Below are positions 3,722-6,366 of a stretch of 11,469 bases of DNA, piece after piece. The notes under the pieces are model-generated. The model was not told where the DNA came from. It was given only the letters and a program-made list of their open reading frames with translations, and ran no database searches. The stretch lies in the IMG/VR virus record IMGVR_UViG_2671180609_000014, one strand, 5' to 3'. The stretch's first letter is position 1. Every line of letters starts with the position of its first letter. The position numbers were made by a program, and so were the translations under genes. This stretch comes from a virus. Its lineage: Duplodnaviria; Heunggongvirae; Uroviricota; Caudoviricetes.

Positions 3722-3906
3722 TGCCAGCATCCTTTTTGTATCGGACGTAAACGGGCCAGCATTGAAAGAATGCATATTTTATTTAATAACTCCCGTTCGT
3801 GTTTTCTCTTGTTAATGGCATCTTCAGTAAATACAGGGTTACTGATAGTGACACCAATTTCAAAACAACCTTCAGACGTATTAACGTTTGGTAATAACGT
3901 TTCCAT
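3718..3906 (-). CDS. dicB: Cell-division inhibitor DicB (62 aa)
   Basis: METLLPNVNTSEGCFEIGVTISNPVFTEDAINKRKHERELLNKICILSMLARLRPIQKGCWQ is near-identical to my recollection of K-12 DicB. ATG at 3906 is preceded by GAGGA 9 nt upstream. It sits downstream of DicF on the same strand, as in Qin. Confidence 0.9.
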   Translation of the reverse strand: METLLPNVNTSEGCFEIGVTISNPVFTEDAINKRKHERELLNKICILSMLARLRPIQKGCWQ

Positions 3907-4075
3907 TATCGCGTCCTCAACAATGAATTTTGTGATGCGGTGCCTGGTGCCTCCAGGTGACGTTAACCAGTTAACAATTAACGCCGGATACAGAGAATCC
4001 ACCCATAACACTGTTTTTAGCTTTAACTGTTCCGCGTGCGCTTAGCCGCATTCACTGCATCACAAAATTCACTTT

Positions 4076-4131
4076 AAAAAGGGCGGACATCAGTTCATGG
4101 GCAAACAGATGCCGCCAAACGTCACCAGAAA
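4076..4131 (-). ncRNA. dicF: DicF small RNA with intrinsic terminator
   Basis: Minus-strand sequence UUUCUGGUGACGUUUGGCGGCAUCUGUUUGCCCAUGAACUGAUGUCCGCCCUUUUU carries the DicF 5' seed (UUUCUGGUGACGUUUGGCGG) and a GGCGG/CCGCC stem followed by a U-run. It lies immediately upstream of dicB. Mature ends are produced by processing, so coordinates are approximate. Confidence 0.75.
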
Positions 4132-4464
4132 ATTGATAACAGAGGGCGTTGCAGCGGGGTTGTCACTTAAGCGTATGGTCAACCTGACAACCCGGTGTCC
4201 TCAACGGGGAAGGAATAACCCCGCCATACTTACCGCTGCGCCATTTCGCGGAGTGCCACAACCGGAAGCGCACGGTCGACGAAAATTTAACGACAGGCTA
4301 TCTATGAACCAGCAACCTCGCCGTGCGCTTTCGCGTTATGCTCTGACTTTTCAGAGAAATATCCTTTCAGTAAACTGTCAGTGCCGGATGTTCACCCGTG
4401 TCCGGCGCACGCACTCCACTTCACCCGTGGAGAACTCCTTAATTACCAACCCTCAGGAGGGTGA

Positions 4465-4698
4465 ATGTTAAAATCAACTCTTATTGCTAAATGCCTTTAT
4501 CAAAATCGCATGGTAAGCAGCATTTCAATAGGCGAGTCTGCAGTTAAAAGTATTTTCGAAGAGTACTTTCCCGGGCATGATTTTAATAAATGGAATACCA
4601 AATTACCGCCAGCAGTTTCAACGCGTATTCTGAAAGCAACCGAAAGAGCAAGTACAATTCGCGTTAACTATTTCATTAAAGATTTGTGGGATCTTTGA
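4465..4698 (+). CDS. Hypothetical protein, 77 aa, convergent with and overlapping the 135-aa gene
   Basis: ATG at 4465 with AGGAGG 5 nt upstream; 77 sense codons in AT-rich DNA where chance ORFs are short. Product MLKSTLIAKCLYQNRMVSSISIGESAVKSIFEEYFPGHDFNKWNTKLPPAVSTRILKATERASTIRVNYFIKDLWDL has no motif I recognise. The SD could instead be part of a hairpin in the minus-strand transcript. Confidence 0.4.
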   Translation: MLKSTLIAKCLYQNRMVSSISIGESAVKSIFEEYFPGHDFNKWNTKLPPAVSTRILKATERASTIRVNYFIKDLWDL

Positions 4699-5083
4699 TA
4701 TCCACAGAGCCTAAAGTATGTGCATATGGATGTGCTATTATGCGCCCTCGCAGATTTGCATCATTTTCTAAATTCACTGAACGAAACAGGGCATCAACAA
4801 GGCTCTGTACAATGCAAAGGCAATCGAAGACTGTCGCCGTTTCTGTTTTGATTGATGAAAGAACATGGCCATTCACGCAAACAGAAATTACCCGTTTATT
4901 AACATCGCTTTCCTGCTTTTGATTATCAGAACCATATAGCCCAGAAAAAGCATTGCGCACATTACGAACCATATTATCGATGGTTTCTTTTTCTGCGGTA
5001 CTAAGGTCAAGAGTAGCCAGTTGTGAACGAACTATATTCGATGCCATTTCCTGTAATGGCGTTGGTAAATCTTTAAATTCCAT
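4676..5083 (-). CDS. Hypothetical protein, 135 aa (moron candidate in the dicB operon)
   Basis: ATG at 5083 preceded by GAGG about 8 nt upstream, and it starts 22 nt downstream of the 72-aa gene on the same strand. The ORF lies in an AT-rich stretch (about 4440-5100). Product MEFKDLPTPLQEMASNIVRSQLATLDLSTAEKETIDNMVRNV... is soluble and has no recognisable motif. Confidence 0.65.
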   Translation of the reverse strand: MEFKDLPTPLQEMASNIVRSQLATLDLSTAEKETIDNMVRNVRNAFSGLYGSDNQKQESDVNKRVISVCVNGHVLSSIKTETATVFDCLCIVQSLVDALFRSVNLENDANLRGRIIAHPYAHTLGSVDIKDPTNL

Positions 5084-5105
5084 TATTAGCCTCGTTGGTT
5101 AGCTA

Positions 5106-5324
5106 TTAACGTGGGTATGTAATCATTCTGGCAATGCTTAATGCCGCTGCTTTTTCCAGATTGGTGATATCCTGCTCCAGAGCGGACAGATTTTCAGCCT
5201 GCTTAGCCCTGGCTTCATTGGCCCATTTCAGGTCCTGCACCGCCTTAATTTTCTGGTGCATCCACTCATAAAGTTCATCATCGGTATAGTCTGGCGCGAT
5301 GATGACGGGGTCTCGTTTCTGCAT
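5106..5324 (-). CDS. Small hypothetical protein, 72 aa (positional counterpart of ydfC)
   Basis: ATG at 5324 with AAGGAG 6 nt upstream. Product MQKRDPVIIAPDYTDDELYEWMHQKIKAVQDLKWANEARAKQAENLSALEQDITNLEKAAALSIARMITYPR is charged and predicted helical. Size and position match ydfC of Qin, but I do not recognise the sequence itself. Confidence 0.6.
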   Translation of the reverse strand: MQKRDPVIIAPDYTDDELYEWMHQKIKAVQDLKWANEARAKQAENLSALEQDITNLEKAAALSIARMITYPR

Positions 5325-5396
5325 GTCGGCTCCTTGTGGTTAGCGTTGCCTGCTTTTTAACCACGTCAGGCGAGGTGGTATCCTCTGAGGGGTCTG

Positions 5397-5696
5397 TTAC
5401 TCGAGAGGAAATTGGTTATGAATACAATCAAGTTTTCTTGCCCAGAATGTGGTGGCTAAGTCTTTGACACATCCTTTAAGCCGCAGGGCTCTGACAGTTT
5501 CGCGGGAGCCATCTGCAAAAATTGTGGTCACCTTGTAACTGAAGATGAGTCCTCGCAGTTCGATGACGAAATCGTTGACAATATCTTCGGTGCACTCACC
5601 AGAGACTTTCTGAAGTAAAGGCGCATACCGCTTAGTTACCGCTCTGATAACTCTTACCTGTCCGGCAATGGCGCTGATATCAATATAAAGCGCCAT
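5397..5696 (-). CDS. Hypothetical protein, 99 aa (first ORF of the dicB operon; coding strand uncertain)
   Basis: Co-directional with the dicB operon and downstream of the putative promoter/operator. It has a weak RBS, and a protein-like zinc-ribbon frame with a better RBS exists on the opposite strand (see findings), so the coding strand is unresolved. Confidence 0.4.
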   Translation of the reverse strand: MALYIDISAIAGQVRVIRAVTKRYAPLLQKVSGECTEDIVNDFVIELRGLIFSYKVTTIFADGSRETVRALRLKGCVKDLATTFWARKLDCIHNQFPLE

Positions 5697-5829
5697 CGCT
5701 GTTTCTTTGCTGATCCCTGGACGCCTTCCATTCTGATGTTTGACTCGCCCACTGAGAAATCCTCTGCTTCCCCTTAACGCCGGGTAGCGGAACTGTTTGC
5801 TGAGAACACCGTGCGGTGTCTTGATGAGT

Positions 5830-5958: not shown

Positions 5959-6366
5959 TTATTTATTTGCGCTTCTTTTGCGAGCTTTGAGTAGTTCTTC
6001 AAAAAGTTTGTTGAAATTCTCAACTCGAGCACGCATCTCTGACAACAGAGCCTTTTGCTCTGACTCAGGCAGTGCGTCGAACAGTTGAAGCAACTCTTTT
6101 TGATCTTCTGTCAGATTGACTGGCTGATTATCTGGGATCGGTTCGCCTGGTTGCTTATCTTCATCTCCAAAAAGAAGCCAAGTCGGCGAGCACTGAAGCG
6201 CCTGGCTCAGTGCGAATAATCTCTTCCCCGCTGGCTGTGTTTCATCTCTTTCCCATTGAGAAATTGTTACGTGAGCCACTTTGACCAGCTTACCTAATGC
6301 GGCCTGAGACAGTTTTAATTTTTTTCGCCTGTATAAGAGGCGAGCACCGAAGGTTTCGTTTTTCAT
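5959..6366 (-). CDS. dicA: DicA-like HTH (XRE family) prophage repressor, 135 aa
   Basis: MKNETFGARLLYRRKKLKLSQAALGKLVKVAHVTISQWERDETQPAGKRLFALSQALQCSPTWLLFGDEDKQP...ALPESEQ...MRARVENFNKLFEELLKARKRSANK has the same length as K-12 DicA and matches my recollection of it closely. It is divergent from a DicC-like gene and upstream of ydfC-DicF-dicB. Confidence 0.9.
   Translation of the reverse strand: MKNETFGARLLYRRKKLKLSQAALGKLVKVAHVTISQWERDETQPAGKRLFALSQALQCSPTWLLFGDEDKQPGEPIPDNQPVNLTEDQKELLQLFDALPESEQKALLSEMRARVENFNKLFEELLKARKRSANK

Follow-up and report, generated by a model that had tools for sequence, protein, structure and literature searches.

ECs1762 and ECs1763 are two small genes that face each other between ydfC and a DicF-like RNA in the early region of a lambdoid prophage of Escherichia coli O157:H7, integrated at ompW. 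They are considered here in IMG/VR virus record IMGVR_UViG_2671180609_000014, a stretch of 11,469 nucleotides that is referred to below, at its full length, as the window. The two genes form a convergent couple that recurs in prophages of at least eight genera besides E. coli, nearly always with the same short overlap, and in E. coli they are one of at least five alternative cassettes that can occupy the site. The product of the smaller gene has been detected in cells and crosslinks to RNA. We propose, tentatively and with somewhat less than even confidence, that the locus couples an RNA-binding protein expressed in the lysogen to a cognate partner of the early lytic phase, and that convergent transcription makes the two mutually exclusive. 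The architecture is much more secure than the function. The features on which the argument turns are as follows.

4452-5085: variable AT-rich cassette, here type A, 634 bp, absent from the Qin prophage of K-12
4465-4698, plus strand: small gene ECs1762, 77 amino acids (aa), known from its open reading frame (ORF), homologues, substitution rates, structural model and published proteomics
4452-4464, plus strand: ribosome-binding region of the small gene (CTCAGGAGGGTGA), from comparison of the regions upstream of five cassette small genes
4676-5083, minus strand: large gene ECs1763, 135 aa, known from its ORF, a PHROG 1363 match and homologues, and co-directional with the early-left (dicB) operon
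4919-5083, minus strand: ECs1763 codons 1-55, N-terminal helical hairpin (MEFKDLP...), common to all five cassette types
4679-4897, minus strand: ECs1763 codons 63-135, the 'partner core', which accompanies the small gene across genera
4676-4698: convergent overlap, 23 bp, coding for the last seven residues of both proteins

Two real genes in a block absent from K-12

The first-pass annotation, made from the letters of the sequence alone, had described an AT-rich insertion between ydfC and DicF that carries two ORFs running towards each other, and its coordinates for the ORFs and for their overlap are correct. The GC content is 39.2% over the interval that it gave (4440-5105) and 39.1% over the block itself (4452-5085), against 53.3% in the left flank (4131-4451) and 48.1% in the right (5086-5700). 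In an alignment with K-12 Qin, which the annotation had named as a check, a single clean block of 634 bp is missing from Qin and the flanks are ~96% identical. The block holds exactly two genes, and the good Shine-Dalgarno sequences claimed for them can be read directly, AGGAGGG lying 5 nt ahead of the ATG of ECs1762 and GAGG 7 nt ahead of that of ECs1763. ORFs of this length are also as improbable by chance as had been supposed: first-order Markov resampling of the region gave an ORF of at least 135 aa in 21 of 5000 resamples, and one of at least 135 aa together with one of at least 77 aa on the opposite strand in only four. Positions 4400-5120 of the window are 100% identical to Sakai prophage Sp9, which identifies the 77-aa gene as ECs1762, the 135-aa gene as ECs1763 and ydfC as ECs1764. 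A survey of 5426 complete E. coli genomes found the whole type A block in 645.

Both ORFs are real genes, as judged from substitution rates, model confidence and homologues of conserved length. Homologues of ECs1762, mostly of exactly 77 aa and with 55-72% identity, occur in Klebsiella, Raoultella, Serratia, Yersinia, Dickeya, Xenorhabdus, Morganella and Salmonella, and an exhaustive profile search gives 163 representatives of the small family at 50% clustering, the majority of about 75-80 aa. The ratio of nonsynonymous to synonymous substitution rates (dN/dS) has a median of 0.14 in the small gene and of 0.30 in the partner core. AlphaFold2 models ECs1762 with five helices at a mean predicted local distance difference test score (pLDDT) of 96.9. 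The model of ECs1763 (pLDDT 72.6) has two domains, an N-terminal helical hairpin (residues 8-50, with helices at 8-23 and 32-50) and, after a linker predicted to be disordered (50-59), a C-terminal domain in which a beta-hairpin precedes helices; the last block of this domain has a pLDDT of 55. ECs1762 matches PHROG 10348 over its full length (residues 1-77, E 1.1e-47), while ECs1763 matches PHROG 1363 over residues 1-130 (E 4.8e-47) and, with residues 55-128 of its C-terminal domain, PHROG 23433 (E 1.7e-8). Each of these families is annotated 'unknown function'.

Neither protein has a match in Pfam (E ≤ 0.1), NCBIfam, PADLOC, the PDB sequences or by fold, in keeping with the earlier failure to recognise a motif in either product, and no characterised homologue of either emerged from Pfam, PHROG, NCBIfam or PADLOC. 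Profile searches of the PDB sequences with the small family and two partner alignments gave noise only, and searches of Pfam and by fold found no known toxin, antitoxin or nuclease fold for the pair. The name 'dGTP triphosphohydrolase', which one public source attaches to the 77-aa protein, is supported by no search and is treated here as a misannotation.

The most direct evidence on ECs1762 comes from the work of Zammit et al. (2025), who found it in a screen for RNA-binding proteins of the pathogenicity islands of enterohaemorrhagic E. coli (EHEC) under virulence-inducing conditions; it was significantly enriched in the UV-crosslinked RNA-associated proteome (TRAPP) of uninduced EHEC Sakai, and the tagged protein was labelled above background in a polynucleotide kinase (PNK) assay (PMC7618764). 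According to the same paper it lacks any detectable known RNA-binding domain (PMC7618764). Our searches of Pfam, the PDB sequences and folds likewise reveal no Hfq, FinO/ProQ, CsrA, KH, S1 or CSD domain, and the arginine-rich N-terminal motif of the N/Nun type is absent, the N-terminus being MLKSTLIAKCLYQ and the entire protein containing four arginines. A pY69 peptide reported in a second study (PMC3681748) has been assigned to the 77-aa protein by inference. It might have been supposed that the 77-aa ORF is non-coding and that only an antisense RNA matters, given its short length, its position on the 'wrong' strand and the lack of a consensus promoter for it in the window. This reading, to which we would give practically no credence, is refuted by the published proteomics, the protein having been seen by mass spectrometry (PMC7618764), and is opposed also by the low dN/dS, the constancy of length in most homologues and the confidence of the model. 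Translation of the 77-aa ORF, on which the first-pass annotation had made its case depend, is thus established. Its description of the module as undescribed holds for the function of the pair, which is unassigned in the families that they match, but not for the genes themselves, since ECs1762 has been reported as RNA-associated (PMC7618764) and ecs1763 is a routine OI-57 marker in the typing of Shiga toxin-producing E. coli (PMC4060028). The pair is therefore partly described already. The literature on ydfC and the dicBF operon is silent on the cassette.

Conservation of the pair and exchange of cassettes

That the two genes constitute a module, as the annotation had suggested, is evident from their distribution. 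In ~95 loci from at least eight genera besides E. coli, a gene of the 77-aa type faces a gene encoding a core of ~75 aa like residues 63-135 of ECs1763; these loci lie in prophages of Serratia, Klebsiella, Yersinia, Hafnia, Citrobacter, Proteus and Photorhabdus and on IMG/VR contigs. Counting at least nine genera, the pair and its frame relation are kept in about 95 of 97 informative loci. The overlap is 23 bp in almost all of them, the departures being 26 bp in Hafnia, 51 bp in Citrobacter and 20 bp in one distant relative. Homologues with as little as roughly 35-40% identity are still paired and convergent, and two distant relatives of the small gene that came from the exhaustive search have a partner as well. 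Within the overlap the tail of the small protein, IKDLWDL, is conserved and that of the partner is variable, so the fixed length of the overlap can be attributed to selection on the small protein combined with a fixed frame relation between the genes. Profile-profile comparison of the small and partner families shows them to be unrelated.

What precedes the partner core differs between genera. There is no N-terminal addition in Serratia or Klebsiella, and a ClpX-type zinc finger is present in Citrobacter. In Yersinia a YdfC-like domain is fused to the core (35% identity, E 1e-10), while in Proteus a YdfC-like product (E 4e-10) is encoded by an adjacent gene just upstream, as in E. coli. In two of these prophages, from Hafnia and Yersinia, tRNA-like Rfam matches lie just past the module (L013 4644-4724, plus strand, and L010 3497-3624, minus strand; 45.6 and 38.5 bits), at roughly the place that the ydfC-dicF spacer and DicF take in E. 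coli.

At the ydfC-dicF site of E. coli there are at least five alternative AT-rich convergent pairs. Their numbers were obtained by searching the 5426 complete genomes with the small gene of each type:

Type A: large and small proteins of 135 and 77 aa, 650 genomes, 23-bp overlap
Type B: 106 and 91 aa, 198 genomes, 23-bp overlap
Type C: 133 and 92 aa, 127 genomes, 41-bp overlap
Type D: 208 and 69 aa, 597 genomes, genes abutting without overlap
Type E: 201 and 63 aa, 8 genomes, 23-bp overlap

The large proteins of types A-E have residues 1-55 in common, with 70-86% identity over residues 1-50/65, and are unrelated thereafter. For the small genes of types A, B, C and E, the sequence upstream, including the ribosome-binding site, is shared almost letter for letter up to the ATG, where unrelated coding sequences begin; the small gene of type D has a different upstream region. 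Between types, the small ORF varies in step with the C-terminal part of the large protein, as would be expected of matched pairs that interact. The cassette boundaries cut through the large gene, so that its C-terminal end travels with the small gene. In type E the partner core carries a 66-residue extension and is accompanied by a different small gene, from which it follows that the core can exist without the 77-aa gene. We considered whether this 201-aa variant reads into the antisense of the 77-aa gene, the small ORF being its shadow, and rejected the idea, since the sequence of the extension differs and another small gene is paired with it. The proteins of types B-E have no real match in Pfam, NCBIfam or PADLOC, PADLOC giving chance-level scores only (E ≥ 0.006), and their PHROG families are of 'unknown function'. 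In one E. coli prophage with a type E cassette, a PaaA2/ParE toxin-antitoxin pair is located between the repressor and the early-left genes (L108 1194-1672, plus strand).

The site is thus polymorphic and not the place of a one-off insertion. The view of the block as inserted cargo is right in that K-12 lacks it, but type A is more aptly seen as an allele of an exchangeable cassette with its expression signals in conserved flanks, and K-12 may equally represent a deletion form.

Transcriptional setting of the pair

The operon in which ECs1763 lies is of the Qin type. On the minus strand the order is a DicA-like repressor with a helix-turn-helix, a 99-aa gene, ydfC, the 135-aa gene, a DicF-like RNA, dicB, a DUF1482 gene and a large exonuclease gene. 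The DicB and DUF1482 products are recognised by Pfam (E 6e-37 and 8e-25), and RefSeq names ydfC and dicB. The neighbouring features are:

5959-6366, minus strand: DicA-like repressor
5397-5696, minus strand: 99-aa gene
5106-5324, minus strand: ydfC (ECs1764), annotated in RefSeq, directly upstream of the 135-aa gene
4131-4451: conserved ydfC-dicF spacer, common to K-12 and the window
4081-4130, minus strand: DicF-like small RNA (sRNA; Rfam RF00039), downstream of the 135-aa gene and in the same operon

All of ydfC, the spacer, DicF, dicB and the DUF1482 gene are also found in the dicB operon of K-12 Qin (ydfABC-dicF-dicB), which differs in lacking the cassette altogether. The DicF match reaches 43.5 bits against an Rfam gathering score of 48 (E 1.4e-7), its terminator stem being divergent. 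A sub-threshold STnc100 match (32.5 against 47; 3887-4092, minus strand) adjoins this DicF copy and overlaps the dicB leader.

The relation between the two genes is antisense, as the first-pass annotation had noted from the overlap, but it extends well beyond the 23 bp that they share: the entire 77-aa gene is antisense inside the early-left operon. Since dicF and dicB are reached only by read-through of that operon, its transcript must cross the whole small gene. A phage 'moron' is flanked by a promoter and a terminator of its own; on the plus strand here, a terminator-like site at 5129-5146 is within chance expectation.

Evidence on the control of the partner comes from Serratia. In that prophage (L005) the partner follows directly after cI. 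Operator-like repeats, belonging to a 16-nt family and a related 18-nt family, occur in the interval that separates cI from cro and again in the one that separates it from the partner. The latter interval also holds a promoter-like site, and cI is followed by a terminator-like hairpin. By these elements the partner is placed first in a repressor-controlled early-left operon, in Serratia at least. The Serratia small gene points back towards the cI-controlled leftward promoter.

In other genera a conserved non-coding element, TGCCTG...CACCAC-ATCAGGCTC-GGTGGTATCTTGG...CACACAACCAAGAAGG, is found about 40-110 nt upstream of the small gene (L003, L007, L010, L013, L016 and others). Within it are nested inverted repeats and, ~38 nt before the ATG, an extended -10-like motif, TGnTAT(C)TT. 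Analysis of both strands for a structured RNA gave almost no covariation, for which reason we regard it as a DNA element or promoter, conceivably a promoter combined with a protein-binding site. In the window, the only possible place for the small-gene promoter is the ydfC-dicF spacer, within which an inverted repeat, CTCCAC-N7-GTGGAG, is located at 4414-4432. An ORF of 124 aa (4097-4471, plus strand) also runs across this GC-rich spacer, antisense to the operon; it has no Pfam match, is absent from the RefSeq annotation and is probably not a gene.

Elsewhere in the window, 104 positions are masked as N (1147-1250), within the 3' part of the large exonuclease gene. The gene at 10299-11057 (plus strand) encodes a 252-aa protein of secreted type, annotated in Sakai as paa / adfO (porcine attaching-effacing associated adherence factor), so that the prophage of ECs1762 and ECs1763 also carries virulence cargo. 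At 11246-11395 (plus strand) a strong Rfam match to the sok antitoxin RNA (103.9 bits, E 3e-23) points to a type I toxin-antitoxin locus of the hok/sok kind at the right end of the window. The copy of the prophage in strain PV15-279 has IS1203 within a replication gene (L001 9682-10894), which the window lacks.

Possible functions of the pair

We propose that the two products belong to opposite states of the phage. ECs1762, a compact protein predicted to be all-helical, is made in the lysogen and contacts RNA; its detection in uninduced EHEC indicates that it is present in cells in which the early-left operon should be repressed. ECs1763, being read with that operon, would be made only once the repressor has been removed. 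As the operon transcript passes through the small gene in antisense, derepression should switch the small gene off, and this could occur by transcriptional interference and by formation of an RNA duplex. The C-terminal core of ECs1763, of ~75 aa, may be the cognate binding partner or antagonist of ECs1762, such that the large protein would neutralise small protein already present. The most likely role for ECs1762 would be post-transcriptional silencing of, or exclusion acting on, early phage RNA, whether the phage's own leaky and toxic transcripts of the dicB/dicF type or those of a superinfecting relative, and the partner would then be the phage's own escape factor. A role in superinfection exclusion or against phages, as the annotation had imagined, is a conjecture.

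Known phage systems provide partial precedents. The sieB gene of lambda, also present in Rac, is active in lysogens, with esc as the means by which the phage protects itself. Like ECs1762 it runs opposite to the early-left operon and faces an early gene, sieB (34482-35036, plus strand) ending exactly where N (35037-35438, minus strand) ends. SieB is membrane-associated and, at 184-192 aa (184 for the lambda ORF), differs from the family of ~75-80 aa and predicted all-helical structure to which ECs1762 belongs; there is no relation in sequence or fold. The partner of sieB, N, is an antiterminator unrelated to SieB, in contrast to the obligate, co-varying partner in the ECs1762 family. Nun of HK022, encoded beside the immunity region, is made in the lysogen, binds early phage RNA and excludes a relative. 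ECs1762 resembles it in being made in the lysogen and crosslinking to RNA, whereas Nun acts through an arginine-rich motif on nut RNA, and ECs1762 has neither such a motif nor a Pfam match. By analogy, then, sieB/N may be taken as a precedent for the layout and Nun as a functional precedent for an RNA-binding exclusion protein of the lysogen. Presumably opposed genes with antisense-overlapping transcripts, here predicted from the gene layout, are familiar from Listeria excludons and from face-to-face or convergent promoter switches (pR/pL of coliphage 186), in which expression of either gene should lower that of the other. The present arrangement differs in that the genes overlap by their 3' ends, with one of them lying entirely within the operon of the other. 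Type II toxin-antitoxin and polymorphic toxin-immunity systems also consist of small cognate pairs with many specificity types at one locus, in which the larger protein has a conserved N-terminal and a variable C-terminal part. Unlike type II toxin-antitoxin genes, which are co-directional and co-transcribed, the genes here are convergent in every locus.

Several observations weigh against the proposal. Neither gene has a match to a known defence or exclusion protein in PADLOC 2.0, Pfam or PHROG. With an isoelectric point of 9.5 in E. coli but 4.9 in Serratia, the small protein does not have a conserved net charge, so that RNA binding may belong to the E. coli member only or be indirect. The plus strand of the window shows no consensus sigma-70 site from 3998 to 4630, and upstream of its small gene the extended -10-like element seen in other genera is missing. 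Finally, the pairing is not absolute, as one Psychrosphaera genome has the small gene alone, outside a prophage, and the rare type E combines the partner core with a different small gene.

Three other explanations have to be weighed against the proposal of a lysogen-made RNA-binding factor with a lytic antagonist. It is possible, if rather unlikely, that ECs1762 is a host-directed regulator modulating host or virulence RNAs (such as DicF or another sRNA), with ECs1763 a mere neighbour and the overlap an accident of tight packing. The origin of ECs1762 in the EHEC pathogenicity-island screen (PMC7618764), its distance of 335 nt from DicF and the status of the cassette as a marker of EHEC-type strains are what would be expected from such a regulator. 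A mere neighbour would not be expected to keep its pairing and convergence to such low identity, or to have its variable part exchanged together with that of the small protein, and in some genera there is no Rfam match (E ≤ 0.01) to DicF or another sRNA family beside the module. The same conservation, in about 95 of 97 loci, and the placing of cassette boundaries within the large gene bear against the two being independent accessory genes linked only by adjacency, the small one a stand-alone exclusion gene of the sieB/nun type acting in the lysogen and the large one an unrelated early gene. The position and orientation of ECs1762 do recall those of sieB relative to N, and in type E the partner core is found with another small gene, but on balance we regard this alternative as unlikely.

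Alternatively, the pair could be a toxin-antitoxin or abortive-infection system, with the small protein as an RNA-directed toxin and the large core as its antitoxin. Cognate polymorphic pairs of small proteins on AT-rich prophage DNA, the crosslinking of ECs1762 to RNA and the low-confidence C-terminal tail of the partner, reminiscent of many antitoxins, can all be accommodated. In our view this is distinctly improbable. The two genes face each other instead of being co-transcribed, and the partner of Serratia lies behind a repressed promoter, so that the 'toxin' would be made alone in the lysogen, where ECs1762 is indeed detected. In addition, ECs1762 has been over-expressed from pBAD24 in a study that does not mention toxicity (PMC7618764), the searches gave neither a nuclease or known toxin fold nor a PADLOC match, and the small gene stands by itself in Psychrosphaera.

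The early-left operons of lambdoid prophages, several of which reside together in O157 strains, are rich in small genes without an assigned function. A pair hitherto 'hypothetical' is seen here to be an ancient, obligately convergent couple that takes the first early-left position in many enterobacterial phages, and that in E. coli belongs to a cassette system in which the small gene is exchanged together with the matching end of its neighbour. Combined with this architecture, the RNA crosslinking of ECs1762 leads to the precise hypothesis of a lysogen-made RNA-binding factor with a lytic antagonist, and ecs1763, a gene in use as an EHEC typing marker, gains a biological context. A bolder extension, which we consider doubtful, is that ECs1762 is the founding member of a class of phage RNA-binding proteins whose fold has so far gone unrecognised, that the partner core is its dedicated inhibitor, and that the interchangeable pairs are orthogonal 'lock and key' sets. 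If that were true, co-resident lambdoid prophages would each silence early RNA, their own or a rival's, privately, and there would be a second, post-transcriptional layer of immunity specificity beside the repressor.
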